Below, in pieces: positions 1 to 37,628 of a stretch of DNA of 55,351 nt (position 1 is its first letter; the number at the start of each line of letters is the position of its first letter). Source of the stretch: a virus. Taxonomy: Duplodnaviria > Heunggongvirae > Uroviricota > Caudoviricetes. Location of the stretch: positions 1 through 55,351 of the IMG/VR virus record IMGVR_UViG_3300033146_005641, one strand, 5' to 3'. The notes beneath the pieces are model-generated. The model was not told the origin of the DNA, did not search any database, and was given only the letters and a program-made list of their open reading frames with translations. The position numbers and the translations under genes are program-made.

Positions 1-483
1 ACCTCTCTAGAAGGGGCTCCTGAGATAGTTAATGGTAGTTTTTACTGTAATGAAAACAATCTAACTTCTCTAGAAGGAGTTCCTAAGGTAGTTAGAGGAG
101 ATTTTAATTGTTCTTACAACGATATATCTTCTCTAGAAGGGGTTCCTGAGTTAGTCGGTGGTATTTTTTATTGTTATAAAAACAATCTAACTTCTCTAGA
201 GGGTTCTCCTAAGGTAGTTAGAGGAGATTTTGATTGCTCTAAAAATAATCTAACTTCTCTAGAAGGGGCTCCTGAGGTAGTCGATGGTATTTTTTATTGT
301 TATAAAAACAATCTAACCTCTCTAGAGGGATCTCCTAAGGTAGTTAATGGTAGTTTTTACTGCTATGATAATCGATTATCTTCCCTAGAGGGACTACCTT
401 ATTCTAAATATGTATACTCTGATTTTAATAAAAATGAAGTTAATGATTACTTAAAATCTAAATTCCCTCAACATTTTATCTAA
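1..483 (+). CDS. LRR-like 21-aa repeat protein, 5'-partial (6 repeats plus C-cap ending FPQHFI)
   Basis: Frame 1 is open from base 1 to TAA at 481-483; 63-bp periodic LTSLEGxPxVVxGxFxCxxNx repeats; same C-cap as 538..1830 and 37628. Confidence 0.9.
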   Translation, partial: TSLEGAPEIVNGSFYCNENNLTSLEGVPKVVRGDFNCSYNDISSLEGVPELVGGIFYCYKNNLTSLEGSPKVVRGDFDCSKNNLTSLEGAPEVVDGIFYCYKNNLTSLEGSPKVVNGSFYCYDNRLSSLEGLPYSKYVYSDFNKNEVNDYLKSKFPQHFI

Positions 484-484
484 T

Positions 485-537
485 TTTAAGTCTCTTTATT
501 CTATAATATGTTAATATAAAGATAGAAGGATAGAAAG
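485..537 (+). promoter_or_regulatory. Early promoter/RBS module TTTAAG-N11-TATAAT...AAGGATAGAAAG-ATG
   Basis: The same spaced motif recurs at 13 or more intergenic sites; resembles Campylobacterota housekeeping-sigma promoters. Confidence 0.75.
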
Positions 538-1830
538 ATGAGGTTTAAAGATACTAAATATGGTGATTTAACAGGACAAACCTATGAAGGAGATATTGAT
601 GTAGTTAATTCGGAACTAGCCTCTCTAGAAGGGGCTCCAGAGGTAGTTAAAGGAAGTTTTTACAGCTTTAATAATCAATTAACCTCTCTAGAAGGGGCTC
701 CTGAGATAGTTAATGGTAGTTTTTACTGTAATGAAAACAATCTAACTTCTCTAGAAGGAGTTCCTAAGGTAGTTAGAGGAGATTCTCTAGAAGGTGCTCC
801 AGAGGTAATTGGTGGTAGTTTTTACTGTAATGAAAACAATCTAACTTCTATAGAAGGAGCTCCTAGTGTGGTTGATGGTAATTTTTATTGCTCTAAAAAT
901 AATCTAACTTCTCTAGAGGGGTCTCCTGAGGCGGTCGATGGTAATTTTAATTGTTCTAAAAATAATCTAACTTCTCTAGAAGGTGCTCCAGAGGTCGTTA
1001 AAGGAGATTTTGATTGTTCAGAAAATGATCTAGCTTCTCTAGAAGGAGCTCCTAAGACAGTTAAAGGAGATTTTTATTGTTCTTACAACAATTTAACTTC
1101 TCTAGAGGAAGTTCCGGAGGTAGTCGATGGTAGCTTTTATTGTTCAAACAATCAACTAACTTCTCTAGAGGGAACTCCTGAGGTAGTCGATGGTAGTTTT
1201 GATTGCTCTAAAAATAATCTAACTTCTCTGGAAGGTGTTCCAGAGGTAGTTAATGGTAATGTTAATTGCTCTAAAAATAATCTAACTTCTCTAGAGGGGT
1301 CTCCAGAGGTAATTAAAGGAGGATTTTACTGTAACGAAAACAGTCTAGTCTCTCTAGAAGGATCTCCTGAAGTAGTTAGAGGATATTTTGATTGTTCAAA
1401 CAATCAACTAACTTCTCTAGAGGGGGCTCCTAGGGCGGTTGATGGTAATTTTAATTGCTCTAGCAACAATCTAGCTTCTCTGGAAGGAGCTCCTGAGGTA
1501 GTTAATGGTGTTTTTTATTGTTATAATAATCAATTAGCTTCTCTAGAAGGGTCTCCTGAGGTAATTAGAGGAGATTTTGATTGTTCTTACAATAATTTAA
1601 CTTCTCTAGAAGGTGCTCCTAGGGTGGTCGATGGTAATTTTTATTGCTATGATAATCAATTAACTTCTCTAGAGGGTGCTCCGGAGGTAGTCGATGGTAG
1701 TCTTGACTGTTCTAAAAATAATCTAACTACTCTAGAGGGTCTACCATACTCTAAAAATGTTAGTTCAGATTTTAGTAAATTAGAGGTTGATGAGTATATG
1801 AAGGATGTATTTCCTTATCATTTTATCTAA
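538..1830 (+). CDS. LRR-like 21-aa repeat protein (N-cap, 18 repeats with one truncated, C-cap ending FPYHFI)
   Basis: LxxLxxxPxxVxGxFxCxxNx repeats throughout the translation. Confidence 0.9.
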   Translation: MRFKDTKYGDLTGQTYEGDIDVVNSELASLEGAPEVVKGSFYSFNNQLTSLEGAPEIVNGSFYCNENNLTSLEGVPKVVRGDSLEGAPEVIGGSFYCNENNLTSIEGAPSVVDGNFYCSKNNLTSLEGSPEAVDGNFNCSKNNLTSLEGAPEVVKGDFDCSENDLASLEGAPKTVKGDFYCSYNNLTSLEEVPEVVDGSFYCSNNQLTSLEGTPEVVDGSFDCSKNNLTSLEGVPEVVNGNVNCSKNNLTSLEGSPEVIKGGFYCNENSLVSLEGSPEVVRGYFDCSNNQLTSLEGAPRAVDGNFNCSSNNLASLEGAPEVVNGVFYCYNNQLASLEGSPEVIRGDFDCSYNNLTSLEGAPRVVDGNFYCYDNQLTSLEGAPEVVDGSLDCSKNNLTTLEGLPYSKNVSSDFSKLEVDEYMKDVFPYHFI

Positions 1831-1831
1831 C

Positions 1832-1883
1832 TTTAAGTCTTGTTATATTATAATATATTATATAAAGAGAAAAGGATAGAAAG
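1832..1883 (+). promoter_or_regulatory. Early promoter/RBS module
   Basis: TTTAAG-N11-TATAAT then TATAAAGAGAAAAGGATAGAAAG-ATG. Confidence 0.75.
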
Positions 1884-3191
1884 ATGAATTCTTTACAAGA
1901 AAAATTTCAAGAAGCCGTAGTAAATTTGATCAGTAATGAAAAATACGTAGATCTTAGCTTTTACGGATTTATTATAGCTAAACTAAATGTTAAATATGCC
2001 AAAAATATGCCTACGGCGGGTGTAAGTTTTAATAAAGATTCATTAAATTATAATTTGATGATTGGACATGCTTTCGATAAATGGAATCTTGAAGAAAGAA
2101 TTGCGGTGCTGATTCACGAATGTAGACATATTTTAGGTCTTCATACAATTCGTAAAGGCGAAAGAGATCATCAATTATTTAATGTAGCTACAGATATTGC
2201 TATTAATCAGTTGATTAGAAACATTCCCGAGGGTGGAGTTTTTCCAGAGACTTTTGATTTTCCCAAAAACGAAAGCGCAGAAACTTATTATGAACTTCTC
2301 AAAAAAGAGAAAGAAAAACAAGAGCAATCTAAAAAAGAGCACGAAGAAAATGAAAAGGATAGTGAGAATGACGAAAATGAAACAGACTCTCAAGAAGATT
2401 CTAATTGTTCTTCTAGCGGATGGAAACCTGATAAAAATTCAAAAGGTGAAACTAAACCTGATTTAACTAGCCTTGATAAAGAGCCTCAAACTTTAGATGT
2501 TCATGATTGGAGCGATGAGGGAAATTCAGATGAGGGATTAGAAGAGCTTCAAAAATCTATAGCCGAAAATATGGTTAGAGAGGCTATAGATCAAACAAGA
2601 GGAAATTTACCACAGGATATTGAAAAAATTCTTGAATTTCTTAAAAAGAAAGCTAAAATTTCCTGGAAAAAAGAGCTTCGTAAAATTATTAGTTCAAGAA
2701 ACGGAGCAAGAATTGAGACTATTAAACGAAAAAATAGAAGATTTCCACACAGAGCAGATCTTAGAGGTAGAAAAGTACAAAAAGATAAACCTGTTGTTTT
2801 TGTAGGTGTAGATACTTCAGGCTCTATGGACGATAGCGATGTACTCAATGGGTTAGTAGAAATTAATGAAGTCATTAAAAATGTAGGTGAGCTTAAAATT
2901 ATCCAAATTGATACTGAGATTAAAGGTATTCAGAGTTTCGATAAAAATAATTTTAAAAGATTTAAAAGAAAAGGTTATGGTGGTACTTATATGGGTGCAT
3001 GTCCCGAATATATTGAAAAAAATAGATTGAAATGTGATGTATTGATAATGATTAGCGATATGTGGATCGAAAATATTCCTTCCGATGATAATTGGAAAAG
3101 TTTTAAAAAATCTGTCCTATGGCTTAGTACTTCAGGCGAAACACCAGAAATTCTAAGACATCATAAAATCTTTAATATCAGAAACGCCTAA
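1884..3191 (+). CDS. Putative metallopeptidase plus VWA-like domain protein (DUF2201-type)
   Basis: HECRH (HExxH), NxAxDxAINQ, acidic linker, MIDAS-like VDTSGSM, GYGGT. Confidence 0.85.
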   Translation: MNSLQEKFQEAVVNLISNEKYVDLSFYGFIIAKLNVKYAKNMPTAGVSFNKDSLNYNLMIGHAFDKWNLEERIAVLIHECRHILGLHTIRKGERDHQLFNVATDIAINQLIRNIPEGGVFPETFDFPKNESAETYYELLKKEKEKQEQSKKEHEENEKDSENDENETDSQEDSNCSSSGWKPDKNSKGETKPDLTSLDKEPQTLDVHDWSDEGNSDEGLEELQKSIAENMVREAIDQTRGNLPQDIEKILEFLKKKAKISWKKELRKIISSRNGARIETIKRKNRRFPHRADLRGRKVQKDKPVVFVGVDTSGSMDDSDVLNGLVEINEVIKNVGELKIIQIDTEIKGIQSFDKNNFKRFKRKGYGGTYMGACPEYIEKNRLKCDVLIMISDMWIENIPSDDNWKSFKKSVLWLSTSGETPEILRHHKIFNIRNA

Positions 3192-3229
3192 AGTTTCTGA
3201 TATATTTCACTTATCACTTAGAGGTAAAG

Positions 3230-3628
3230 ATGAACCTAAACGAATTTATTGATCTTATTAGATCTAAAAGAACTATTAGTTTTAGAATAGATTCTCTAGA
3301 AGAGTTTAAAGAGATTTCAACTATTATAAACATTTTAGAAGATATAGGTGTAGTAAAGAAAAAATTACATATTGAGAAAAGAGTAGGAGATATAATACTC
3401 GATTCTTATAAAGATGAGAGTAAAGACTATCATAATATTCCTTGTTATGTTTCTTTAATGGCGAATAATGATGAAATTTTAACAGGACATCAGGGTGTAA
3501 ATACAAAAATGGAAAATCCTCTAAATACTAGTAGCTGGCCCGCCAGGCTATATTATGAGACATATAAAAACGCTAAACATTTGAAAGATTATATCGATAT
3601 TAGTAGATATCCTCAATATTTTATATAA
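3230..3628 (+). CDS. Hypothetical protein ending YPQYFI
   Basis: ORF with GAGG RBS; C-terminal motif. Confidence 0.75.
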   Translation: MNLNEFIDLIRSKRTISFRIDSLEEFKEISTIINILEDIGVVKKKLHIEKRVGDIILDSYKDESKDYHNIPCYVSLMANNDEILTGHQGVNTKMENPLNTSSWPARLYYETYKNAKHLKDYIDISRYPQYFI

Positions 3629-3629
3629 C

Positions 3630-3681
3630 TTTAAGGTGGACTATATTATAATATGTTATATAAAGAGAAAAGGATAGAAAG
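3630..3681 (+). promoter_or_regulatory. Early promoter/RBS module
   Basis: TTTAAG-N11-TATAAT plus AAGGATAGAAAG-ATG. Confidence 0.75.
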
Positions 3682-4794
3682 ATGTTAATTTCAAAAATGA
3701 AAGATGTATTTCAAGTAGCTCATATGAGTAATGATGCTGTACGTATGGTAGGACTTCACGGTATTGGTAAGTCTCAAGTAGTTGAACAATTTGCTAAAGA
3801 TAATGATTATCATATCGAAACATTATTTTTAAGTCAAAATGAGGTAGCTGATCTTATCGGTATTCCAGATATGAGAGATGGTATTACTTATTGGACAAAG
3901 CCGGTATGGTTAAAACGTATGGAAGATGCTAATCAAGCAGGTAAACATTGTGTATTGTTTCTCGATGAGCTTGCTAGAGCACCGATCGAAGTAAGACAAA
4001 GTGCTTTACAACTAGTTCTTGAAGGACGTATTCATGAACATAATCTACCTATACTCGACGGCTTGAGAACATTGATTGTAGCTGCGGACAATCCGAGTGA
4101 TATCTATCAAACAGATGAGCTTGATGATGCTCTACTTGATCGTTTCGGTAATTATAATGTAACCGTTGATGTAAAAGGTTGGTTGAAATGGTCAAGATTA
4201 AATAATATTAATTCTGTAGTAACCGATTATATCGCCGAGTTTAGTGATAAACTTCATTTCATTCCTGAGGATGAAAATGATAAAGGTGCTACACCTAGAT
4301 CTTGGGCAAAACTTTCAGATTTGATTAATAATGCAGAAAAACTAGGTCTTAGTAAAGGCGTTTTTTCAGAAATGCTTAAAAGTAAACTTGGAGAAACTGT
4401 TGGTTATAGTTTCCTTCATTTCTATAATGATTATGTAAAAATCGTAAAACCTGAAGATATTGAAAAAGCTATTATGAAAAAAGCAGGTAAAGATCTTAAA
4501 AAATCTGAAAAAGAATTTACTAAAATTTCTGAATCAATTCAAAGTATTACGAAAAATATCGAAGCTCTAGCCGCGAGTGAACTTGCTAATAAGATGAAAG
4601 AATTAACTAAAGAAGATGAAAAATGGTATGATATCCTTACTATTTATCTTGATTCATTGAATGTCGAAGTTTTTGTAAGTATTATTAAAACTTGGAAAGA
4701 GGGTGAAGATAGTGAGTTTTATTTCAAATGGTCAGAAACAGTACCAAATTTTTATATTTTCCAAAAAGTTCTAAGAATTAAAGAAGATTCTTAG
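3682..4794 (+). CDS. MoxR-like AAA+ ATPase
   Basis: Walker A GLHGIGKS, Walker B LFLDE, ALLDRF arginine finger, TPRSW; neighbour of the VWA gene. Confidence 0.85.
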   Translation: MLISKMKDVFQVAHMSNDAVRMVGLHGIGKSQVVEQFAKDNDYHIETLFLSQNEVADLIGIPDMRDGITYWTKPVWLKRMEDANQAGKHCVLFLDELARAPIEVRQSALQLVLEGRIHEHNLPILDGLRTLIVAADNPSDIYQTDELDDALLDRFGNYNVTVDVKGWLKWSRLNNINSVVTDYIAEFSDKLHFIPEDENDKGATPRSWAKLSDLINNAEKLGLSKGVFSEMLKSKLGETVGYSFLHFYNDYVKIVKPEDIEKAIMKKAGKDLKKSEKEFTKISESIQSITKNIEALAASELANKMKELTKEDEKWYDILTIYLDSLNVEVFVSIIKTWKEGEDSEFYFKWSETVPNFYIFQKVLRIKEDS

Positions 4795-4803
4795 GATTTT
4801 CTT

Positions 4804-5022
4804 ATGATGAGTAATAGTATCGAAGAAACGCTTATTAAGAAGCAGGATATAGTCCGAAAGTTGTATTAAAACCTTAGACGGAACTATAACCTTTCTTCGA
4901 GAAAGTAAAATACTTATAATGTCTATAGAGATATTTTACTTTAAAGATAGAATACAAATAGAATTATTGAAATAGAAAATTCAAAAATATTGAGAGAAAA
5001 ATATCCTCAGTATTATATTTAG
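4804..5022 (+). pseudogene. Disrupted ORF ending LREKYPQYYI
   Basis: ATG at 4804 and the tagged 3' end share a frame but are separated by stops; could be indel errors. Confidence 0.45.
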
Positions 5023-5031
5023 GACGTATGC

Positions 5032-5253
5032 GTGACAGATTTTTTTGATATTCCTGCTAAAATAGGAGATAAAATATTATTCGTTAATCAAGATGAGTTT
5101 TGCACGGGAGCTATTCTGGAAAAGATACTTCACTTCGATAATATCAAAGTCTTGGTTAACATTGACAATGAAAAGAAATCTGTATTAGTACATAATAAAA
5201 ACTTTATTATTATAAATGATATTATAAAAAATCATCCTCAATATTTTATGTAG
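5032..5253 (+). CDS. Small hypothetical protein (SH3/KOW-like start, IGDKI) ending HPQYFM
   Basis: ORF with AGGA RBS; C-terminal motif. Confidence 0.7.
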   Translation: MTDFFDIPAKIGDKILFVNQDEFCTGAILEKILHFDNIKVLVNIDNEKKSVLVHNKNFIIINDIIKNHPQYFM

Positions 5254-5254
5254 T

Positions 5255-5306
5255 TTTAAGTTAAATTATAATATAATATATTATATAAAGAGAAAAGGAT
5301 AGAAAG
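5255..5306 (+). promoter_or_regulatory. Early promoter/RBS module
   Basis: TTTAAG-N11-TATAAT plus AAGGATAGAAAG-ATG. Confidence 0.75.
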
Positions 5307-5675
5307 ATGACTAAAGAACAAATTAAAAAACATGGTAAAGTAATTAAATGGTTCTGCGATAACCCTGAAAAAGGTGTATGGGTTAAAATATCAAATCGTT
5401 GGGAACAAACAATTGAACCAGCTTTTAATCCTAAACTTATATATATACAAAATGATGAATATGTTGAACTTAGAAAAGCATTGGCTGAAGGTAAAACAGT
5501 ACAATTAGATAATCAGTTTGGATATGATAGTAGCAAATTAAAAAGCTGGATTAAAGTAGACGAAATATACAACCATATACCTATAGCACATTATCGTGTT
5601 AAACTAAATTCAAAGAATGGTATGAAGATGAGTAAATATTTAGATGATAAAGAGATAGAAGATGAAGATAACTAA
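5307..5675 (+). CDS. Hypothetical protein
   Basis: ORF directly after the promoter/RBS module. Confidence 0.75.
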   Translation: MTKEQIKKHGKVIKWFCDNPEKGVWVKISNRWEQTIEPAFNPKLIYIQNDEYVELRKALAEGKTVQLDNQFGYDSSKLKSWIKVDEIYNHIPIAHYRVKLNSKNGMKMSKYLDDKEIEDEDN

Positions 5676-5850
5676 TGCAATGGTGTTTGTAGAACTAGAT
5701 AATACAAAAGAATTAAGACAGTTATTTATTACAAAGGAAATGACAAAAGTTTTAATCAGCATGATTGAAGCTGGAGCCTTTCATAAAGAAGATGTAACTA
5801 TCAGTGATAAAATCTGTGAAGTATTAAGGATAAAAGATGAAGATAACTAA
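5662..5850 (+). CDS. Hypothetical protein
   Basis: Overlapping ORF, GAGATAGAAG-ATG start. Confidence 0.6.
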   Translation: MKITNAMVFVELDNTKELRQLFITKEMTKVLISMIEAGAFHKEDVTISDKICEVLRIKDEDN

Positions 5851-6080
5851 AAGTTAGACAAGTTTTTGCTTAAGTATGATACGGCTGTTGGAGTAGTTTT
5901 ATTAGTAATGACTGCTTTTGCAGTTATAGGAGCTATATGGGCAGTAGGGAGTATATTATGAACCCAAGTAGCCCTGAAGAAGCGATTGTTGGAATAATAG
6001 GATGTATAGTATTAGTGATACTCGGTAAAATATTCTTAGAAGGCAGGACAGGATAATATTAAAAATTTAAGGAGTACAAA

Positions 6081-6557
6081 ATGAAAAAATACACAGTAGA
6101 GCTAACAAAAGAACAGTTACAACAATTAGGAATTGAGGTAGAACCTGAATTTACATATCCACTATACAAACGATGGAAAGCTACAGGAGAAGTTGTAAAA
6201 TTCACTTCTATGACAGAAGGTGTTACAGTATGGAGTGGTAATGAAGATAATAAAGTAGGTTATACTTCTGATGCATTTGTAGAGCATACTACCGATATGT
6301 GGGAAGATGTAGCTTATGATTCTGACAGAGATTTATGGGACGGACAACCAATAGAATGTTGGGATAATGCAGGTACTCATCAAAGATTAATTAAGTTTTA
6401 TGATACTGAACATACATGTTCTTTTGACTATACCGGGAAAAGAGATGGCTTGGCTTATAATAATTATAAAGCACTTCCATCCGATAGATACGACAAATGG
6501 ATACTGGAAGCTTATAAAACACTGGAGAAATACAATGACACTCAAACAGCCGATTAA
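6081..6557 (+). CDS. Hypothetical protein
   Basis: AAGGAG RBS, 158-aa ORF. Confidence 0.75.
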   Translation: MKKYTVELTKEQLQQLGIEVEPEFTYPLYKRWKATGEVVKFTSMTEGVTVWSGNEDNKVGYTSDAFVEHTTDMWEDVAYDSDRDLWDGQPIECWDNAGTHQRLIKFYDTEHTCSFDYTGKRDGLAYNNYKALPSDRYDKWILEAYKTLEKYNDTQTAD

Positions 6558-6827
6558 AGAGTTTACAAGATGGAAATATGCAAAACCCGTTAAACCTGAA
6601 GATTTATATCAAGGAGAAAAATATGACTGTTGCTAAAAATAGTTGTGCAAGTATCGGCGATTATCTTCAAATAAGAAGACTAATCAGATACCACATAAGA
6701 CAAAGAGCTGATAGATTTTATCGACTAAGATATTTGAGAAGCAAAAGATGAGTGTTACGACAGAAGGTATAAAAAATAGTGGGCTACTTCATAATATAAA
6801 GTTAAGTATTCTTAAAGGAGATAGAAA

Positions 6828-7196
6828 ATGTATCCAAAATATACAAGTTCAGATGGCTACGAATTTGACGATAAAGGTGATTGGGCTATATACGAATTAG
6901 AAAGTTCAAGCAATCCATATTGTAGAGCTGAAAATTATGGTGGAATAAAGCCAGATGACGACGACAATGATAATAGTTATAGCACTTCATATTCACATAA
7001 ACCGACCTATACAATTATTACAAACTTTAAGATTATATATGAAACAGAAAAGGCTATATTATTAAAAGGAGTACCAGATGATTGTTGGATACCAAAAGCT
7101 ATGATATATAATAAAACAAAAGATGCTATCAAAGTATATAGTAATTTTGATGGAAAAGATGCACTGAAACAAAATAGGATTATATGGAATAAATGA
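6828..7196 (+). CDS. Hypothetical protein (ETEKAIL...WIPK motif)
   Basis: AAGGAG RBS; motif common in small phage proteins. Confidence 0.7.
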   Translation: MYPKYTSSDGYEFDDKGDWAIYELESSSNPYCRAENYGGIKPDDDDNDNSYSTSYSHKPTYTIITNFKIIYETEKAILLKGVPDDCWIPKAMIYNKTKDAIKVYSNFDGKDALKQNRIIWNK

Positions 7197-7384
7197 TGAC
7201 AGTAGAAGAATTAACAGAAGTTATAAAAAATAGTGGGCTACTTCATTGTGAAATAGCTAAAGCAGTTACAGATGCTATCAAAGAAGATATGGAGAAATAT
7301 TTTAATTCTTCTGCAATGGAAGATTTAGTAAATAATAATGATTATATTTCTTTTTACTTAGCAGCAAGAAGATTTGGAGATTAA
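7193..7384 (+). CDS. Hypothetical protein
   Basis: ATGA-coupled ORF. Confidence 0.6.
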   Translation: MMTVEELTEVIKNSGLLHCEIAKAVTDAIKEDMEKYFNSSAMEDLVNNNDYISFYLAARRFGD

Positions 7385-7429
7385 TAATAGTAGGAGTAAT
7401 GCTATACTTCCACTATAAGGAGATAGAAG

Positions 7430-7586
7430 ATGAATAATGCAGTTTATGTCAATGGAAAACTTGTTGGATATAGATGTTCTGTTTGTGATGAAATTAAGTC
7501 TAAAATGTGGGGGAACAACATGTAATCAATGTAGAATACTTTTGAAAATTGAAAATATAGCAAGAAGATTTGGAGATAGAAAATGA
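7430..7586 (+). pseudogene. Zn-ribbon mini-protein (CSVC...CNQC) frameshifted at a G5 run
   Basis: AAGGAG RBS; removing one G at about 7509-7513 joins two CxxC motifs and ends the frame at TGA 7584-7586 overlapping the next ATG. Confidence 0.5.
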
Positions 7587-7852
7587 AGATTAAACAAGAA
7601 GACATAAGAAATAGTATTATATGTATATTTCGTTACTGCTTACACAGAAATACTTATGCAGTATCAACAGCACAAAATATCATAAATTACAATCTGCAAG
7701 ACTTGTCTAACCATGATATAAAGCTTTTTATTAGAGAAATAACTGAAGCTTTTGATGAGTATTCTAAGCATAAATATGCAGGTATAGATAAATCATGGAT
7801 GCAAACAAGAGACCTATTAAAAGATGAATTACAAAGGAGAGACAATGAATAA
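7583..7852 (+). CDS. Hypothetical protein (FRYCLxRxTY motif)
   Basis: GGAG RBS, ORF. Confidence 0.7.
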   Translation: MKIKQEDIRNSIICIFRYCLHRNTYAVSTAQNIINYNLQDLSNHDIKLFIREITEAFDEYSKHKYAGIDKSWMQTRDLLKDELQRRDNE

Positions 7853-8009
7853 AGAAAAAGCATTGGAGATATTAAGATTATTATCTAACCTTGAAAGTGT
7901 TATGAACATGAAGATGTTTAGAGACCAAATACCAAGTGGTATTATTGATGAACTTGATAATGAGATATTATGGTTGTTTGACTATATAATGGAGATAGAA
8001 AATGACTAA
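7824..8009 (+). CDS. Hypothetical protein (likely start about 7845)
   Basis: AAGGAG before the second ATG. Confidence 0.6.
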   Translation: MNYKGETMNKEKALEILRLLSNLESVMNMKMFRDQIPSGIIDELDNEILWLFDYIMEIEND

Positions 8010-8044
8010 AAAAGAAATAATTAAAGAATTTAGGAGCATTAAAA

Positions 8045-8434
8045 ATGACAAAAATAGAAACTAAAACAGAAGAGGAAATGATAATACCTCATAAACGATT
8101 TAAAACTGTAATGAGTAGTAATTATAAACAAAGATTAGTAGAAATTATCAAAATTGAAGATAATTTTGTAAATACATATTATGACTGTGGAAAAGGTAAA
8201 CCAACATGTTTAGGTGAAGAAATAAATATCTATGAATTTGTACATATATGTAAAGAATGGGCATTAAGCGAAGGGATTACATTTAATATACAAATGAGCA
8301 AAGACATTACATTGCTTTATATACCTACACATAATATGGACATAGAAGCTAAGACTGAATTTAAAGCTGTTATTAAAGCGTGCAGCTGGTTATTAAATAA
8401 TAAAAGAAGACATAATTATGTATCAAATGAATAA
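8045..8434 (+). CDS. Hypothetical protein
   Basis: AGGAG RBS, ORF. Confidence 0.7.
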   Translation: MTKIETKTEEEMIIPHKRFKTVMSSNYKQRLVEIIKIEDNFVNTYYDCGKGKPTCLGEEINIYEFVHICKEWALSEGITFNIQMSKDITLLYIPTHNMDIEAKTEFKAVIKACSWLLNNKRRHNYVSNE

Positions 8435-8495
8435 TAAATTTGGTTCTAAAAGTTATGTAGTTATTTTAGTAGAATTTAATAAATAAGGAGTTGAA

Positions 8496-8840
8496 GTGTT
8501 AACGCAAGAACAGTGGTTGATATATTTGTATGGAATATACCCAGAAGGTGGTTTAACAATAGCAATGATAGTAATAACATTAATTGGATGGGGATTTATG
8601 ATACCTATAATAAAAATATTTACACGAGAAGATATAGAAGAAGATATAACTATAAATAAAGCTATAACTATAAATAAAGCTATAACAATAGCTACTTTAA
8701 TAATTGCTTGTATAGGATATTTTATACCTCCTAAAAATGTATTCTTCACTATGATTGCTGCACCCTATGTAAAAGAAAATCTTATTGATGAAAAAGGTAA
8801 GTTACATAAGATAGATAATATATCATTGATAAAGCATTAG
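8496..8840 (+). CDS. Membrane protein; 3' end possibly frameshifted
   Basis: AAGGAG RBS, hydrophobic segments, 18-bp tandem duplication (ITINKA x2). Confidence 0.65.
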   Translation: MLTQEQWLIYLYGIYPEGGLTIAMIVITLIGWGFMIPIIKIFTREDIEEDITINKAITINKAITIATLIIACIGYFIPPKNVFFTMIAAPYVKENLIDEKGKLHKIDNISLIKH

Positions 8841-8879
8841 AAAAAGCAGATAAATATTTAGATGAGAAGGAGGTAAAAG

Positions 8880-9134
8880 ATGAATAGAGATGAAGCAATT
8901 GGAGAAGTACACAAATATAAATTTTGGTCTGGCGAAGAAGGATATGCAAACTATGTAGAGGAAACACTATCACTTATTGATGAAATCTATGATGATTTTG
9001 AAAATCAAGTATGTAGTAATTGTAAAGAATTAAAAAGTGGTATAGGGTGTGAAATATATCCTTGTGTTTGGACATGGCTATCAACACATGAAAATGAATT
9101 TGGATGTAATCAATGGAAACCAAAGGGGATATAA
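8880..9134 (+). CDS. Hypothetical Cys-containing protein
   Basis: AAGGAGG RBS; CxxC...C...C. Confidence 0.7.
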   Translation: MNRDEAIGEVHKYKFWSGEEGYANYVEETLSLIDEIYDDFENQVCSNCKELKSGIGCEIYPCVWTWLSTHENEFGCNQWKPKGI

Positions 9135-9137
9135 AAA

Positions 9138-9347
9138 ATGCAACTTGATATTGAACCAAACAATGGAGAGTTATTCAGATGTCAAAAAAACAAGCATAAA
9201 GATACATGGATAACAAAAGATGGTAAAGTATTGATCATTAGTAAATTGACAACAGAATATATTAAAAATGCAATTGAATTATTTGGAGTGGATAATGTTC
9301 CAAGAACAATACTTGAAGAATATTATAACAGAACACAACAAGGATAG
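9138..9347 (+). CDS. Hypothetical protein
   Basis: ORF in operon. Confidence 0.65.
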   Translation: MQLDIEPNNGELFRCQKNKHKDTWITKDGKVLIISKLTTEYIKNAIELFGVDNVPRTILEEYYNRTQQG

Positions 9348-9350
9348 AAG

Positions 9351-9566
9351 ATGAATAAAACATGTAAAATATGTGGGCAAACAATGCAAATAAAATATAT
9401 ACCTAAAGGTAAAATATTTTTATGGAAGTATCCAGATAATATGAAATCAGATTGGTTCGATAGAAGGGAATTTAGTCTTGGTTCAGATTATAAACTAAAT
9501 AAGGACTTAAAATATCTATATTGTTCTTGTGGATATAGTGAATATAAGGAGATAGAAGATGAATAA
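9351..9566 (+). CDS. Small Zn-ribbon protein
   Basis: CKICG...CSCG. Confidence 0.65.
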   Translation: MNKTCKICGQTMQIKYIPKGKIFLWKYPDNMKSDWFDRREFSLGSDYKLNKDLKYLYCSCGYSEYKEIEDE

Positions 9567-10008
9567 AAAAGATGTATTAAACACATTTATAGACAGGTTA
9601 GATAATGAGTTAGTAGAATTAAGAGAGAAGTTTAATAAATTAGAATTATTTCTTAATGATAAAAAGAAGACAAAAAAGATTCCAGAGAAACAGATATTTC
9701 TATTAAGAAAGCAATATAAAATAATGCAAGATTATATTGATGTATTAGTTGAAAGAATATCATTAGCAAGAAATCCAGATAAAGATGAAAAACCTCAAGA
9801 AGCAGGAAAGAAAGTACAAACAATGTGGTCTGATAATGATAGAGAATTGCCTTATGTTTTTGATTTATTATTTGACATAAAAACAGAGGCACAACTTTAT
9901 AATGCTTTAAATTATGAAAAAACCGGTCACAGTAGAGATGTTGATGAAATTTATAGTGTAGCTTTAAATGAAGGATATACTAAAGAATATCTATCTAAAT
10001 ATAAATGA
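9559..10008 (+). CDS. Hypothetical coiled-coil protein
   Basis: AAGGAG RBS; helical-hairpin N-terminus. Confidence 0.7.
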   Translation: MNKKDVLNTFIDRLDNELVELREKFNKLELFLNDKKKTKKIPEKQIFLLRKQYKIMQDYIDVLVERISLARNPDKDEKPQEAGKKVQTMWSDNDRELPYVFDLLFDIKTEAQLYNALNYEKTGHSRDVDEIYSVALNEGYTKEYLSKYK

Positions 10009-10022
10009 TAAGGAGATAGAAT

Positions 10023-10268: not shown

Positions 10269-10271
10269 AAG

Positions 10272-11189: not shown

Positions 11190-11267
11190 TGTTTTGAATA
11201 TTATGGTTTATTTTATCCTTATAGAGTATATACATATCATAAAAAGAAATCCTCAAAGATATATTTA

Positions 11268-11501: not shown

Positions 11502-11502
11502 C

Positions 11503-12372: not shown

Positions 12373-12373
12373 T

Positions 12374-12790: not shown

Positions 12791-12805
12791 AACGTAGGAG
12801 GATAA

Positions 12806-13162
12806 ATGTATAGAGCTTCAGAGTTTATTAATAAAGATAATATGATTAGAATTCTTAAAGATAATCTACCTCTATTCTTATTGAGAGATAGTGAAATTAT
12901 AGAAATTAAACATGTTTCTAAAAAATTTTATAGAGATAGAGCACCTTTAGAGACAGATAAAGACCATCCTGAATTTCCCGAAGATACCGGAAAATATGCT
13001 ATAGATACTAGGAAAGATGTATTGTTTGAAAACAGTATTGAGGCTGAGGCGTATAAAAGAATAGAGTATTCTAAACATATTATGAAAAATTTTGATTCTA
13101 TTAGGAGAGAATATTTAAAGATGAAGAAATTTAAGGAGGAGAATCCACAATATTTTATATGA
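12806..13162 (+). CDS. Hypothetical protein ending NPQYFI
   Basis: AGGAGG RBS; C-terminal motif. Confidence 0.75.
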   Translation: MYRASEFINKDNMIRILKDNLPLFLLRDSEIIEIKHVSKKFYRDRAPLETDKDHPEFPEDTGKYAIDTRKDVLFENSIEAEAYKRIEYSKHIMKNFDSIRREYLKMKKFKEENPQYFI

Positions 13163-18634: not shown

Positions 18635-19215
18635 GAAAGCAATATATTGTTGTGACAGAAACAATAATACAAAAGGCAGGACTAACATTATAAGACGTTA
18701 GAACACCTAGGAGGTGTAGGTGTACCAGCTATAAAAGAATAAGGTTTAAAAGATACTTAAAGAAAAACTTAATTCTAAGATAATAGAATTTAATAAAGTT
18801 TTTAAAACTAAATTTGTAATAGACGCGGAGGATTTAGGAAAGATTCTTAAAAGGTTCGCTGAATTACATATGCCTCAAATTTTAGTTTAAAATATAAAAA
18901 TATTAAGGTAGTAGTATGGAATGGTATTATATTATAATTTATAGTATTTTAATTATTGGTGCAGTGAGCTCATATATGAATTATAAATTACAAAAGAAAT
19001 GGTTTGATCTAACTCATCCTCCAAAAGATGTAGAATATAAAACCGAACCTCATAAAGATTAAATATGAATAGAATTTTAGAAGTATTAATGATTTTACTT
19101 ATAGTTTTTGGAGTAAGCTTATGTACATTTTTTCTTACTTTAATATTTCTTTTATAGTATTTTAAGTTTCTTTATTATATAATATAGAACTTAACATAGG
19201 AATACAGGAGGATAG

Positions 19216-28833: not shown

Positions 28834-31800
28834 ATGGAGTTTACTAAATATCAATATGAAAATATCTTTCAGGTTAGTAGAAAAGAGGGTAGAAAAAATA
28901 TAGTTGAGGTAAAGGCTCGGATTTTTGATCCCGAATCTAAAGAATCTTTTTTTATAGACGTGACAAGTGATAGTATACCAGATTTATATACTATCACAAC
29001 CCAAGATACACTATGGAAATCATATTTAGATAGTAATGTTAGCCTACAAAAACACTCATTTGAAAGTATTCAAGAATATAAAAAATTTTTAAAAGACTAT
29101 AAGTATAATGTACTTGATGAGGAGGGTAGTCAAGTATATAAAACTATCGATTTTGATGGTGAAGAAATAGAAATACCTGTAACAGAGTTTAAAGATACTA
29201 TATTTGGATATCAGAATTTGTCTCATACGTTTATTCGAAATAAATTTAAAGATTCTGAAAAAAGTAATCATACTCATAGAGTATGGTTCTTAGATATTGA
29301 AACTAGAGCTAATCAAGCAGTTGACCACTTTCCGTGGCCAGAAACAGCACCTGAAGAAATTACTATGATTCAGATATATGATAATTTCGATAATATGTAT
29401 TATATATTTGGTAGAAAGGATTTTACGGGAGCTTTCGAAAAGAGTAATGTAAAATATATTAAAATAGCCGAAGAAAAAGATCTTTTAGAAATATTTCTGA
29501 GACTCCTAGAAAAGAAGAAACCGTCTGTTATATCTGGGTGGAACTCTCTAGGTTTTGATATGACATATATAACAAATCGTATAGCTATAGTCTTAGATGG
29601 TGTACGAGCAACAGAAAATGAACTAAAAGAAATTCTAAATCATAAGCATAGTTATAAAGAACTTAAAAATGTAAAAAGATTAAGTCCTGTAGGCATTGTA
29701 GAAGCTAAATCTAGCTTTACTATGGACGGTATGGACTGTACGGAAGTAAAATGGTATGGTATTAATCTTATAGATTATAGAGAACTTACAATCAAGTATG
29801 GATTTTTAGGACTGCCTAGTTATAGTTTAAAAAATGTTGCTAAACATTTTGATCTATCTCAAAAACTTGATAATAGTATGTATAAATCTTTTGATGGATT
29901 TTATACAGGAGAGGGTTGGATTCAGCCACCCGAGGATGAAACAGACCTAGATGATATAGTTACAAGATATCAACTAGGATATAAATCAGGTAAATATTCT
30001 AAAAAAGAATTACAACAGGTAGTATATAATAGATTCGTTGACTATTCCTTAAGAGACGTGGAAATACTTGTTGAACTAGATGAACTGACTAAATATTTAG
30101 ATTCACATAAACAAATTGCATATTTTGCTGGTGTATCTATGGATGATAATTGGGGAACGCAAAAACACTGGGTTTCTATGATGTATAGAGAATCTCTAAA
30201 TAAAGGATTAGTTCTTCCCCTAAAACAACAGTATGGTGATGAGAGCACTCCGTGGTTAGCAGGATGGGTTCGTACAATTCCTGGTAGATATAGATATATT
30301 AGCTCGTTCGACTTTACCTCTCTATATCCTAGTCTTATTAGAGCGTGGAATATTGGAGGAGATACATACCTAAAAGAATATCAGATTCCTCAAGAATTAA
30401 AAGATCTAAGAGATAAATATTTCTGGTATTTTACAAGAAAAAACCTTAATAGGGATGAAGCGTTTGGAGAGCTAGGCGAAACCGTTAAGAAATATGATGA
30501 TAAAATCAATGATATACCTGAAGAGAAGAAATTTTATTTAGAACTTATGGAGAATAGAGATATTATCTCTAAAACTCTTAAAAAATATAATGTTCAAATT
30601 ACACCTAATGGATATTTTTATAGAAAAGATACCCAGAGTATTTTCTCGGGACAGATGGAGAAATTTTTTAAAGAGAGACTTAAAGAAAAAAGACTAGGTC
30701 AAAAATATGAAGCTATTTTATCAGATACAGATAAAGATAATGATAAATATCAAGAGATAAAACAAAAGAAAGAATATCATGAAAATAGATCTATCGTACT
30801 TAAAGTACTATTAAATAGTGCATATGGTGTTTCAGCCTTAAGTAGTAATCCTTTCGGACAGGGAAGAATTACGGGAGGTAGTATTACTATTAGTGGTAGA
30901 ATGAGTAATAATCTTGTCTCTATGAATCTGAATAAATATATAGCAGAGGTCGTTGACGATAAAGAGACTGTCAAAAATCCGTGGAATATGAAGTATATTA
31001 TTCAAGCCGATACAGATAGTTGCTACGTTAATCTGGGATCTATTATAGAGAAAAAGTTTAAAAATCTAGAGGAATCTAAAAAAATTAAGCTTTTACTTAA
31101 ATTAAGTAGTGAAAAACTTCAAGATATTATTAATAATACTATACAGGAGATAGGAGATACTTTTAATCTTTCAGAGCCTGAAGCACTAAAGATGGAAAAT
31201 GAGGTAATTACAGAAAGTTTTGTATCTCTAGCTTTAAAGAGATACTTTACAGATGTAGTAGTAAATGATGGACATATACTATCTAAACCTAAAAGAAAAA
31301 TAGTAGGTGTTTCTTTGGTATCATATAGTACTCCACCTGCCTTAAAGAGGTTACTATCACCTGTTGTGGATATTGCTTTAGAGGGAGGAGAGACAGAGGT
31401 AAGAGAATATATACATAAGTCAAGACACGAATTTGCTGAATTAGATCCTGTTGAATTTGCTAGAACAGCTAAAGTGAATAATTTAAATTATATGGAAAGA
31501 GATGGAAAGTATAAAAGACAAAAAGAGGATGGTACGTGGTTAACAGCACCTCTAGGTAGTACGGCCGCTCTTAATCATAATAAAATTACTAAAATGTTAA
31601 ATATTCAAGAGATATTCCCGCCTGTAGAAAAAGGTGATTCTTTAAGCTATGTATATATAAAAGAACCTAATAAATTAAATATACGTTCTGCACTAGGATG
31701 GACAGATCCTAAATTAAGTAAAAAGATAAACTTGAAATCATTTGCAGACTATGATTTACACTGGGAAAAAGATTTTATAAATAAGATAGATATAATTATT

Positions 31801-31854
31801 AAACCATTAAATTGGAATATTCACGCCAGAACTCAAGAAATTGATGAATGGTAG
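28834..31854 (+). CDS. Family B DNA polymerase (T4 gp43-like)
   Basis: Exonuclease LDIE and GWNSLGFD; polymerase DFTSLYPS, KVLLNSAYG, DTDS. Confidence 0.95.
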   Translation: MEFTKYQYENIFQVSRKEGRKNIVEVKARIFDPESKESFFIDVTSDSIPDLYTITTQDTLWKSYLDSNVSLQKHSFESIQEYKKFLKDYKYNVLDEEGSQVYKTIDFDGEEIEIPVTEFKDTIFGYQNLSHTFIRNKFKDSEKSNHTHRVWFLDIETRANQAVDHFPWPETAPEEITMIQIYDNFDNMYYIFGRKDFTGAFEKSNVKYIKIAEEKDLLEIFLRLLEKKKPSVISGWNSLGFDMTYITNRIAIVLDGVRATENELKEILNHKHSYKELKNVKRLSPVGIVEAKSSFTMDGMDCTEVKWYGINLIDYRELTIKYGFLGLPSYSLKNVAKHFDLSQKLDNSMYKSFDGFYTGEGWIQPPEDETDLDDIVTRYQLGYKSGKYSKKELQQVVYNRFVDYSLRDVEILVELDELTKYLDSHKQIAYFAGVSMDDNWGTQKHWVSMMYRESLNKGLVLPLKQQYGDESTPWLAGWVRTIPGRYRYISSFDFTSLYPSLIRAWNIGGDTYLKEYQIPQELKDLRDKYFWYFTRKNLNRDEAFGELGETVKKYDDKINDIPEEKKFYLELMENRDIISKTLKKYNVQITPNGYFYRKDTQSIFSGQMEKFFKERLKEKRLGQKYEAILSDTDKDNDKYQEIKQKKEYHENRSIVLKVLLNSAYGVSALSSNPFGQGRITGGSITISGRMSNNLVSMNLNKYIAEVVDDKETVKNPWNMKYIIQADTDSCYVNLGSIIEKKFKNLEESKKIKLLLKLSSEKLQDIINNTIQEIGDTFNLSEPEALKMENEVITESFVSLALKRYFTDVVVNDGHILSKPKRKIVGVSLVSYSTPPALKRLLSPVVDIALEGGETEVREYIHKSRHEFAELDPVEFARTAKVNNLNYMERDGKYKRQKEDGTWLTAPLGSTAALNHNKITKMLNIQEIFPPVEKGDSLSYVYIKEPNKLNIRSALGWTDPKLSKKINLKSFADYDLHWEKDFINKIDIIIKPLNWNIHARTQEIDEW

Positions 31855-33882: not shown

Positions 33883-33967
33883 GGAAGTGGCACGTAAGGT
33901 ACGTAAGAGGTTTGCTAAACCTTGGCCGGTAAAACGGTAGTGAGTTCGATTCTCACCATTTCCACCA
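33883..33967 (+). tRNA. tRNA-Ser(GCT), shortened D arm
   Basis: Anticodon arm, long variable arm, T arm, CCA. Confidence 0.8.
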
Positions 33968-34014
33968 TATTTAATTGTATTTTAAGCAAGATTATTATAT
34001 AATATGTGTATAAT

Positions 34015-36490: not shown

Positions 36491-36706
36491 ATGAAAAAGA
36501 GTATATACCTATACGTTATTAATAATAAACTCTATGAGGTTTACTATAAATATAATAAAAATATTACTTATAGATATGTAAAAGAGTATGGATCACGAGA
36601 TAAACCTATAAGATATTATGATTATGGAAGAAAAAAATCATTAGGTATGGCCCGGGTTCTTACTAAAGAACAAGCTAGAGAAAAATTTCCTCAATATTTT
36701 ATTTGA
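36491..36706 (+). CDS. Hypothetical protein ending FPQYFI
   Basis: ORF; C-terminal motif. Confidence 0.7.
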   Translation: MKKSIYLYVINNKLYEVYYKYNKNITYRYVKEYGSRDKPIRYYDYGRKKSLGMARVLTKEQAREKFPQYFI

Positions 36707-36707
36707 T

Positions 36708-36759
36708 TTTAAGTTTTATTACACTATAATATATTATATAAAGAGAAAAGGATAGAAAG
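36708..36759 (+). promoter_or_regulatory. Early promoter/RBS module
   Basis: TTTAAG-N11-TATAAT plus AAGGATAGAAAG-ATG. Confidence 0.75.
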
Positions 36760-36927
36760 ATGAAAACGAGATTTAACAATGCTGAATATTATGATTTTAT
36801 ATATGGTGAAGATATTGTAATAACTTCATTAGAAGGATATCCATATTCTGAAGATATTAATTCAGATTTCAACGAAAACGATAGTAATTAATATTTTAAA
36901 TCTAAAATTAATCAATATTTTATTTGA
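36760..36927 (+). pseudogene. Repeat-less relic of the LRR family (C-cap only), in-frame TAA at 36889
   Basis: TSLEGYPYSEDINSDF...*YFKSKINQYFI aligns to the LRR C-cap. Confidence 0.6.
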
Positions 36928-36938
36928 TTTATAGAAAG

Positions 36939-37628
36939 ATGAAGTTCAGAGACACTAAATATGGTGATTTAACGGGACAAACTTATGAAGGAGATATTGA
37001 TGTAAGCGAATTAAGTCTTACTTCTCTAGAGGGGCTCCGGAGACAGTTAATGGTAATTTTTATTGTACTCATAACAATCTAACTTCTCTAAAAGGATCTC
37101 CTAAGGTAGTTAATGGTAATTTTAGTTGCTCAGATAACAATTTAACTTCTCTAGAGGGGGCTCCAGAGACAGTTAATGGTAGTTTTAATTGTTTAAACAA
37201 TCAACTAACCTCTCTAGAGGGGGTTCCAGAGGTAGTTAACGGAAGCTTTTATTGTTCAAACAATCGATTAACATCTCTAGAAGGGGTTCCGAAGGTAATC
37301 GATGGTAGTTTTTATTGCTCTTACAACAATTTAACTTCTCTAGAGGGGGCTCCGGAGACAGTTAATGGTAATTTTTATTGTACTCCATAACAATCTAGCC
37401 TCTCTAGAGGGATCTCTGAGAGAAGCTAATGGTAATTTTAATTGTTCTTACAACGATCTAGCTTCTCTAGAGGAGGTTCCGGAGGTAGTTATTGGTAATT
37501 TTTATTGTACTCATAACAATCTAGCCTCTCTAGAGGGATTACCTTATTCTAAATATGTATACTCTGATTTTAGTGATAAAGAAGTTAATGATTATTTAAA
37601 ATCTAAATTTCCTCAATATTTTATATAA
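36939..37628 (+). pseudogene. LRR-like repeat gene (N-cap, 8 repeats, C-cap FPQYFI) with -1 and +1 frameshifts
   Basis: N-cap MKFRDTKYGDLTGQTYEGDIDV; G4 instead of G5 at 37031; extra C at about 37385. Confidence 0.8.

Follow-up and report, generated by a model that had tools for sequence, protein, structure and literature searches.

Why should about 20 mostly unrelated reading frames of one phage stop at the same few amino acids? The first-pass annotation had listed 21 such ends in the window (the whole stretch of 55,351 nt analyzed here) and had attributed them to selection on a peptide with a free C-terminus. All 21 tails were found at the stop coordinates and with the sequences that it gave (Table 1). 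Proline is fifth from the end in 19 of them, and all three stop codons and synonymous codons are in use, as had been claimed. As a list of genes the annotation stood only in part: about 16 tails end credible ORFs, but the remaining five (stops at 5022, 11268, 18890, 24331 and 36927) belong to relics or doubtful ORFs. The phage belongs to an uncultured T4-like clade whose members probably infect Campylobacterota (a Campylobacter-type host).

Table 1. Loci of the window that end with the tail, and one example of a junction cassette.
Feature	Position	Strand	Tail	Remarks
LRR-family ORF, 5' end open	1..483	+	FPQHFI	promoter TTTAAG-N11-TATAAT from 485
Junction cassette (example)	485..537	+		one pyrimidine after the stop, then TTTAAG-N11-TATAAT, conserved leader, Shine-Dalgarno site, ATG
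LRR-family protein, 430 aa	538..1830	+	FPYHFI	promoter at 1832
ORFan, 132 aa	3230..3628	+	YPQYFI	promoter at 3630
Relic, 23-codon open frame	4951..5022	+	YPQYYI	no ATG; sole possible start TTG at 4990 (10 codons before the stop); no promoter downstream
ORFan, 73 aa	5032..5253	+	HPQYFM	promoter at 5255
Doubtful ORF with TTG start, 35 aa	11161..11268	+	NPQRYI	
ORFan, 77 aa	11268..11501	+	LPHLFI	promoter at 11503
ORFan, 270 aa	11560..12372	+	HPQYFI	promoter downstream; homologue in L068 (25% identity) ends NLERFV
ORFan, 99 aa	12491..12790	+	YPQYFI	stop followed by Shine-Dalgarno site and ATG; no promoter
ORFan, 118 aa	12806..13162	+	NPQYFI	CCA codon; no promoter
ORFan, 92 aa	14722..15000	+	YPQDFI	deviant; CAG GAT makes the Shine-Dalgarno site AGGA; ATA TGA overlaps next ATG (14997)
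ORFan, 79 aa	14997..15236	+	FPYYTI	orthologue in G003 (42% identity) ends LPQYFI
Relic or non-gene, 46-codon frame	18750..18890	+	MPQILV	no usable start
ORFan, 59 aa	19798..19977	+	YPYLFI	no promoter
ORFan, 98 aa	23457..23753	+	YGAYLI	no proline; TAT GGA GCA makes the Shine-Dalgarno site GGAG; stop overlaps ATG of gene at 23750
ORFan, 112 aa	23750..24088	+	KPSFFI	Shine-Dalgarno site downstream; orthologue in L059 ends KPNFFI
Doubtful ORF, 34 aa	24227..24331	+	FPQYFI	orthologue in L059 has 76 aa
ORFan, 95 aa	35387..35674	+	FPQYFI	tRNA-Cys next, no promoter; orthologue in L059 ends YPQYFI
ORFan, 71 aa	36491..36706	+	FPQYFI	promoter at 36708
Fragment of broken LRR gene (36760-37082)	36892..36927	+	INQYFI	after an in-frame stop
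C-terminal LRR piece, 87 aa	37365..37628	+	FPQYFI	promoter at 37630

Tails were counted over the entire 183,351-bp record (81% complete), using a greedy set of 276 genes. Of these, 32 ended with P-x-x-[FYL]-[IMV], compared with 0.25 expected from the internal rate of the pattern; in 2000 resamplings at random positions, the mean was 0.26 genes and the maximum 3. Within the genes of the record, PQYFI occurred 15 times at the C-terminus and never internally. The motif is also specific to frame and position: six-frame translation of the whole record gave 30 occurrences of P[QYH][YHL]FI, 29 of them on the plus strand immediately before a stop codon and one elsewhere. About one in eight genes of the phage (12%) thus share a tail of six residues, F/Y-P-Q-Y-F-I; more fully, a short charged amphipathic helix is followed by [F/Y]-P-[Q/H/E]-[Y/L]-F-I-COOH. 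Its carriers number at least 25: soluble and mutually unrelated early proteins of 59 to 430 aa, most of them ORFans, with a variable LRR family and a nucleotidyltransferase-like protein among them.

Because the tail is part of the junction between genes, its final codons do double duty for the gene that follows. Genome-wide, 20 of 34 tails are followed, one base past the stop and at a fixed spacing, by a host-type promoter, TTTAAG-N11-TATAAT; in the window such a promoter stands behind 8 of the 21 tails, and the earlier estimate that about half lack one holds. Sites of the form TTTAAG-N10-12-TATAAT number 51-55 in the genome, nearly all of them on the plus strand and with a conserved leader, then a Shine-Dalgarno site and ATG, behind them. 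TTTAAGTnTT is the -35 consensus of C. jejuni (PMC3824568). A T-rich box upstream of the promoter, TTTAT, coincides with the F-I codons of the tail. The first-pass reading of peptide selection therefore needs a qualification, since TTT ATH TRR, the two final codons with their stop, doubles as part of the downstream promoter. In the 31 promoters without a tagged gene before them, the TTTAT/TTAAT box is kept at the same place, with 0.4-1.1 bit there only; the positions of CCTCAATA have about 0 bit, so that the codons for P-Q-Y contribute no information to the promoter.

Codon choice follows the type of junction. Promoter-linked tails are biased toward ATC and CCT, the rare Ile codon ATC being used in 10 of 19 compared with 9.5% in the genome. 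Promoter-less tails are near the codon usage of the genome (CCT 8, CCA 5, CCC 1; ATA 7, ATT 4, ATC 3) and have a Shine-Dalgarno site within 0-1 nt of the stop or overlap the next ATG. The two deviant tails YPQDFI (15000) and YGAYLI (23753) arise because a Shine-Dalgarno site for the overlapping next gene is embedded in them; the latter is identical in the relative L059. Three arrangements serve the next gene: TTT ATH TRR supplies the T-rich box directly before a host-type promoter, a Shine-Dalgarno site comes immediately past the stop, or one lies inside the tail with the stop overlapping the next ATG. Between 1 and 16000, a search for stem-loop terminators gave 4 terminator-like sites compared with 3.7 in shuffled sequences, none in a junction. 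A candidate RNA hairpin at 12790, between UAUCCUC of the tail and GAGGAUA downstream, was rejected, the pairing being absent from other junctions. A tag-like sequence before the promoter at 33981 was likewise rejected as a tail relic; it is the CCA end of a tRNA-like element.

These junctions resemble the PeSL (promoter-early stem-loop) cassettes described in hyperplastic regions of T4-type phages (Arbiol et al. 2010, PMC2839356; Comeau et al. 2014, PMC4122927), which are implicated in ORFan shuffling. In both, strong host-type (sigma-70-type) early promoters are repeated between ORFan genes of a T4-like phage, and the cassette starts at the stop of the upstream gene in an AT-rich tract, a likely site of modular shuffling. 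The junctions here differ in that no stem-loop or terminator was found in them (1-16000) and in that the repeat extends into the upstream ORF, giving it a conserved, selected peptide end; a shared C-terminus is not mentioned in the earlier PeSL paper (PMC2839356).

In the strongest of the alternatives the tail has no function as a peptide: a repeated DNA module (AT-rich tract, stop, then promoter or ribosome-binding site) has been copied and homogenized by recombination and gene conversion, with the peptide merely tolerated. We consider this unlikely, though it accounts for a good deal: the fixed spacing of 20 of 34 tails before a promoter, the promoter box that reads as F-I codons, the ATC/CCT bias as a sign of DNA-level constraint or gene conversion, and the Shine-Dalgarno sites inside tails in the relative L068 and at 15000 and 23753. 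It also has a precedent in the PeSL cassettes, which begin at the stop of the preceding gene in an AT-rich tract and mediate ORFan shuffling in T4-type phages (PMC2839356, PMC4122927). In G000, moreover, the DNA of promoter-linked tails is nearly identical, and gene conversion between junction cassettes would look alike. However, such a by-product offers no reason for the P-Q-Y codons, where the promoter has nothing to specify; a tolerated scar should fall in any frame, but the motif keeps to one frame and to the stop; and the 14 promoter-less tails keep the peptide with ordinary codon frequencies.

Comparison with relatives also argued against a by-product, as the peptide persists across three types of junction and, with synonymous changes, in orthologues of 25-33% identity. 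In several pairs the tail was kept with bodies of 25-42% identity. Orthologues of a tagged 305-aa protein (28-33% identity) end KFPQYFI, NPHLFI and KYPQYFI, and the last 12 columns are the best conserved of the alignment. A more distant relative, L068, has a row of 23 tandem genes of which about 18 end x-E-Y-F-I; their junctions, a GGAG with an ATGA overlap and no TTTAAG-type promoter, form a third nucleic-acid context. Two successive genes of L054 have the ends KPQLFI and KYPQYFI, with the codons CCA, TAC and ATT. Relatives that keep the DNA and lose the peptide would have pointed the other way; what we found was the peptide kept at 25-42% identity in different nucleic-acid contexts. The tail was lost in one orthologue pair (YPQHFI versus NANKMI), and in L068 Pro gives way to another residue at every place where a codon ending with G creates GGAG; the motif therefore partly yields to needs at the RNA level. 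Among the few long relatives compared, L059 has an extra tagged gene of 76 aa after the ligase gene that is missing in the window. Relative to the consensus, tail codons showed 44 synonymous and 37 non-synonymous differences; the resulting N/S, about 0.2 of the single-step expectation, agrees with selection on the peptide but is biased, because tails were picked by their peptide pattern. Two Campylobacter phages in culture, NCTC12673 and CP220, lack [Q/E]-Y-F-I-stop, 10 kb of the window matched no cultured phage by megablast, and a search for related loci with the phage polymerase as query found none.

What the tail is attached to was the next point at issue. The first-pass annotation had called the bodies unrelated apart from the LRR loci. 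BLAST after trimming the last 8 residues, which remote homology may escape, agreed with it: about 24 bodies stood alone, two formed a duplicate pair and 8 belonged to one LRR family. Apart from the LRR proteins, the tagged proteins matched no Pfam or PHROG family, and a search among 5.8 billion proteins with the 118-aa protein (12806..13162) matched only itself. The further claim that no recognizable enzyme or structural gene is tagged needs narrowing: the tail is absent from all recognizable replication enzymes (the end of the gp43-like polymerase, 28834-31854, is ...TQEIDEW), but an enzyme-like protein outside the window does. The latter is nucleotidyltransferase-like and bears the precomputed Pfam label Gad2 (anti-Gabija).

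Each tail might instead serve its own protein, Pro capping the helix and Y-F-I stapling onto the core or shielding against proteases, so that it aids folding or stability without docking. The hydrophobic stripe of the tail helix (-13, -10 and -6, then P, then Y-F-I) would suit such an element. So would the confident model of an LRR protein (pLDDT 95.5), in which helix 192-202 and the tail end the solenoid where a cap is expected and could simply be its C-cap. However, pLDDT falls over the last residues of both predicted structures, the other being an AlphaFold2 prediction for the 305-aa protein that drew on a 4-sequence alignment (pLDDT 56, tail below 50). It is also hard to see why more than 25 unrelated folds of such different length should need the same cap, exactly C-terminal and never internal. 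We regard an intramolecular role as improbable.

The strict register to the stop codon also suits a role in translation, in which the last nascent residues, or their codons and tRNAs, tune termination and pass the ribosome to the next start by coupling or re-initiation. The promoter-less tails, with their adjacent Shine-Dalgarno site or overlapping ATG, would fit. However, coupling is needless for the 20 promoter-linked tails, where a promoter intervenes and the next ATG is about 53 nt away, and behind some tails there is a tRNA gene or a long gap. We know of no example with a PQYFI motif, and this role appears very unlikely. Least credible of all, the tagged small proteins could be very diverged copies of a single family with the tail as its best-kept segment; weak BLAST links over 60-100 aa joined some pairs (composition-based statistics off, tail included) but disappeared after the last 8 residues were trimmed, and the lengths (59-430 aa) and folds, among them an LRR solenoid and a nucleotidyltransferase-like one, are too diverse.

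Known terminal peptides provide partial parallels. The T4 internal proteins (IPI, IPII, IPIII, Alt) carry an N-terminal capsid targeting sequence, cleaved by the prohead protease at L/I-x-E. Like the tail, it is a short terminal peptide on otherwise unrelated variable-region proteins, and in T4 it is an address label; the tail differs in sequence and in being at the extreme C-terminus (29 of 30 directly before a stop). C-terminal docking peptides include the clamp-binding tails of T4 gp43, gp33 and gp55, the beta-clamp motif QL[SD]LF, DDDIPF of SSB, and SspB XB and ssrA for ClpX. They too are short, partly aromatic free C-termini behind a flexible or helical linker, on many proteins that meet at a hub, but the tail fits none of their motifs and the phage polymerase is untagged. 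In poxviruses, ankyrin-repeat proteins end with PRANC/F-box, a folded domain of about 40 aa whose partner is Skp1. Variable repeat binders (here LRR) with one constant C-terminal element, possibly linked to one host machine, are common to both, whereas the element here measures 6-14 aa. The tail is also unlike an ssrA-type degron in ending Y-F-I; the phage's own tmRNA tag ends AAQVA, and that of H. pylori ends AKAA (PMC12493166).

No partner of the tail and no known motif like it was found. A profile of 60 tails gave nothing significant against PDB sequences (best E-value 0.87), and neither 'PQYFI' nor a described tail of this kind was found in the literature searched. If the tail mimicked a host protein, K-F-P-Q-Y-F-I-stop might be met in bacterial genomes; the 18 scattered matches were at chance level except for one, a related phage contig binned with a Sulfurovum MAG. 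No gp45 clamp homologue (PF02916) was found in the 81%-complete record, and the same family was also missed in all control genomes. When the DUF2201 metallopeptidase/VWA protein (1884-3188) and the 71-aa tagged protein (36491-36703) were co-folded, the score lay below the mark in a run without controls and weighs neither for nor against binding.

The enrichment, frame specificity and conservation of the tail support selection on a peptide that has to end the protein, even where its codons overlap expression signals. We tentatively favor the view that this portable C-terminal peptide, residing in PeSL-like junctions, acts as a common docking handle, although we hold this at somewhat less than an even chance. 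It would be a short linear motif that needs a free carboxyl end and brings many early proteins to one partner; candidates are the prohead, a hub protein, or a protease or chaperone of either host or phage. Recombination at the repeated junctions, in the manner of PeSLs, probably also carries the tail to further genes. A bolder version, which we consider speculative and improbable, is an adaptor library: variable bodies would bind different host targets, and the common F-P-Q-Y-F-I-COOH would plug all of them into one hub. Its bodies would comprise LRR binders with variable faces, a Gad2-like anti-defense enzyme and dozens of ORFans; its hub might be an AAA+ protease or chaperone of the host or, with co-injection in view, the prohead of the phage. 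If so, one reader would serve about 30 effectors, and new effectors would gain their address by recombining into a junction cassette.

The junctions are a clear case of dual coding: bases that specify a selected peptide end belong at once to the promoter or ribosome-binding site of the next gene. This suggests how genes newly acquired by the phage could receive an address label from a junction cassette. Among the early genes of large phages, most are ORFans without a handle, and a six-residue tail on 12% of the genes offers a direct experimental one. A single peptide pull-down could name a hub where about 30 host-takeover or anti-defense proteins converge.

All 21 tails that the first-pass annotation had reported in the window, C-terminal peptides of the type F/Y-P-Q-Y-F-I-stop, were present where it had placed them; 5 of the 21 end unconvincing genes (see table). 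Using a greedy gene set for the whole record (n = 276), we counted 32 genes with P-x-x-[FYL]-[IMV] ends, against 0.25 expected from the internal frequency of the pattern and a maximum of 3 upon resampling of random positions. PQYFI itself occurred 15 times at a C-terminus and never internally in this set. When all six reading frames were searched for P[QYH][YHL]FI, 29 of the 30 occurrences lay on the plus strand with a stop codon directly after, and the motif was never out of frame. The tail is real, strongly non-random and undescribed. Tagged genes, whose products carry it, were concentrated at 1-38 kb and 169-183 kb, where they make up 27 of about 75 small plus-strand genes, with a few more at 81-143 kb; their products, at a median of 98 aa, are soluble, mildly acidic proteins.

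Features of the tail-bearing regions (window coordinates unless marked G000, the whole record, or L050, a piece of it; tails by stop coordinate)
Feature	Position	Description
Tail	5022	23-codon open frame without ATG; sole possible start TTG, 10 codons from the stop
Tail	11268	35-aa ORF with TTG start
Tail	18890	46-codon frame without usable start
Tail	24331	34-aa ORF; orthologue on L059, a contig of a related phage, 76 aa
Tail	36927	within a broken LRR gene, past an in-frame stop
Broken LRR-family gene	36760-37628	at least three pieces (36760-36891, 36924-37082, 37365-37628), one the source of the INQYFI site
DUF2201 metallopeptidase/VWA protein and MoxR-type AAA+ ATPase	1884-4794	own early promoter each; interleaved with tagged genes
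SegE-type GIY-YIG homing endonuclease	20165-21532 (-)	only minus-strand gene within the plus-strand early region
Promoter	21618	shortly past the SegE-type gene; degenerate tail-like sequence upstream
tRNA-like 3' end	33930-33985	T-arm and CACCA; directly upstream of a promoter; outside ARAGORN-called tRNA genes
tmRNA	37842-38129	phage-encoded; Rfam RF00023, 89 bits
Two larger proteins	41062-42519; G000:C1:135641-136564	similar acidic ends, …DLDDLLNDF and …DLDDLLADLG
305-aa tagged protein	G000:C1:174911-175828 (L050:5911-6828)	nucleotidyltransferase-like GG...DxD (GG...DID) signature

Behind 20 of 34 tails, the stop codon is followed by exactly one pyrimidine and the promoter TTTAAG-N11-TATAAT, which leads into a conserved leader, a Shine-Dalgarno site and ATG. 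In total, the genome has 51-55 of these promoter sites. At the 31 sites not behind a tail, a TTTAT/TTAAT box (0.4-1.1 bit) is kept at 6-10 nt before TTTAAG, at the position of the tail's F-I codons, with almost no information at the positions where the tail has CCTCAATA. Because untailed promoters keep the box but not CCTCAATA, F-I-stop (TTT ATH TRR) is of dual use and P-Q-Y is not promoter-encoded. Dual use is visible in the codon choice of promoter-linked tails, in which Ile was ATC in 10 of 19 (9.5% genome-wide) and Pro was CCT in 18 of 20. The junction is dual-coded: the last codons and stop of a protein-selected peptide end also belong to the expression signal of the gene that follows. 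No terminator hairpins were found in the junctions. The tRNA-like 3' end probably belongs to an odd RNA noted in the first-pass annotation.

Such repeated junctions might be a scar without function, maintained through gene conversion, which we consider rather unlikely. In the 14 tails without a promoter, Pro codons (CCT 8, CCA 5, CCC 1) and Ile codons (ATA 7, ATT 4, ATC 3) occurred at about genome frequencies, and the peptide was still kept. We compared relatives at about 89% (G007) and 74% (G001, G003, G005, G011 and G012) nucleotide identity and several metagenome contigs. Their own ORFans carry FPQYFI, NPHLFI, FPHRLI, LPQYFI, IPHLLI, FPHLFI, YPQLVI and KPQFFI, with the promoter present in some and absent in others. 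The tail was kept in orthologue pairs at 25-42% identity and lost in one pair (YPQHFI versus NANKMI). Relative to the single-step expectation, crude N/S values from codon differences to the consensus were about 0.2 and 0.13, inflated figures in that the tails were picked by peptide pattern. The earlier argument for selection on the peptide holds, but has to be joined with a clear overlap with DNA and RNA signals.

Aligned from the end, 43 tails showed hydrophobic residues at -13 and -10, E at -12, K at -9, K/R at -7, F/Y at -6, P at -5, Q/H at -4, Y/L at -3, F at -2 and I at -1. This pattern reads as a putative amphipathic helix of two turns, ended by Pro and followed by three hydrophobic residues up to the free terminus. 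In a confident AlphaFold2 model (pLDDT 95.5) of an LRR member, residues 192-202 form a helix and the tail follows, the last residues at lower confidence. The tail as an intramolecular cap or stabiliser of the protein that bears it is an improbable reading; the same end is kept on proteins with unrelated bodies.

The two deviant window tails can be explained at the RNA level. The codons CAG GAT TTT ATA TGA of YPQDFI (15000) supply an AGGA Shine-Dalgarno site, with the overlapping ATG of the next gene six bases further on, and those of YGAYLI (23753; TAT GGA GCA ... ATA TGA) supply GGAG before an overlapping ATG at 23750. On L054, a short contig of a related phage, the gene preceding the orthologue of the 305-aa protein ends KPQLFI with a Shine-Dalgarno site directly after. 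In a more distant relative (L068, metagenome contig Ga0164315_10005034), a 482-aa protein shares 51% identity with the gene preceding the tagged array of our phage, and about 18 of 23 tandem, mutually unrelated small genes at 700-6300 end [N]-x-E-Y-F-I. Their junction DNA, nnG GAG TAT TTT ATA TGA, comprises Shine-Dalgarno site, spacer and a next ATG overlapping the stop, and no TTTAAG promoter was found in the array, in which the same tail family takes the form of a translational-coupling junction. An effect on translational termination or coupling, suggested by such overlaps, is a very improbable explanation of the tail. Promoter, Shine-Dalgarno-after-stop and overlap junctions together present one peptide in three nucleic-acid contexts, a combination that no single DNA or RNA signal readily explains.

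With the last eight residues removed, relatedness by BLAST was confined to the LRR family (8 tagged members and fragments) and one recent duplicate pair; about 24 tagged proteins were singletons in this search, which may miss remote homology. Neither Pfam nor PHROGs gave a family for tagged proteins other than the LRR proteins, and descent of all tagged proteins from a single hyper-diverged family is the least probable reading of all. Orthologues of the 305-aa protein (28-33% identity) end KFPQYFI, NPHLFI and KYPQYFI, and the last 12 columns of the alignment are the best conserved; the L054 orthologue encodes its tail with CCA, TAC and ATT codons. The Pfam label PF26128 Gad2 (anti-Gabija), precomputed for this protein, was not recovered by our own hmmscan at E <= 0.01, and the AlphaFold2 model of this protein was too poor for use.

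The window makes up the first 55 kb of an IMG/VR virus record (183,351 bp; estimated completeness, 81%; G+C, about 29%) and contains 23 tRNA genes and one tmRNA gene. Its gp43-type DNA polymerase, encoded in the window, is 28% identical to polymerases of Campylobacter T4-like phages; the window also encodes a Gp23-like capsid protein, the SegE homing endonuclease, ribonucleotide reductase, ThyX, ligase and an RNase H-like protein. The tmRNA tag, VNNTDYTPAAQVA, and the Helicobacter pylori SsrA tag, VNNTDYAPAYAKAA (PMC12493166), have the first six residues (VNNTDY) in common, which points to a probable Campylobacterota host, and the repeated promoter TTTAAGTnTT...TATAAT agrees with the Campylobacter jejuni '-35' consensus TTTAAGTnTT (PMC3824568). 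A 6.5-kb contig of a related phage (L088, CAZOBE010000044.1), binned as an uncultured Sulfurovum sp. MAG, encodes a 485-aa protein 68% identical to G000 167949-169379 and an LRR gene with the tail FPQYLI, followed by the promoter. We infer that the phage is T4-like and infects a member of the Campylobacterota, the bin membership being a weak hint. The tail was absent from the cultured Campylobacter phages NCTC12673 and CP220.

We tentatively favour, at slightly short of an even chance, the reading that the tail would be a common docking handle requiring a free C-terminus, because the motif is strictly terminal, body-independent and kept on proteins unrelated to one another, among them LRR proteins that resemble binders and a putative anti-defence enzyme. 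A candidate partner, raised in the first-pass annotation, would be the pair of MoxR AAA+ ATPase and VWA/metallopeptidase protein. T4 internal proteins carry an N-terminal capsid targeting sequence, and clamp, SSB and ClpX are bound through C-terminal hub-docking peptides. These are the closest protein-level analogues, but none of their sequence definitions fits the tail and, in contrast to clamp-type docking, the DNA polymerase here has no tail. The acidic …DLDDLL… ends of two larger proteins may represent a second C-terminal docking motif, shared among replication-type proteins.

Among known systems, the PeSL cassette of T4-type phages is the nearest at the DNA level, as it likewise has a promoter, begins at the stop codon of the upstream gene and lies among ORFans; the stem-loop is missing here, and a shared peptide is not described for PeSL (PMC2839356, PMC4122927). 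The searched literature contained no mention of PQYFI, and further searching found nothing relevant.
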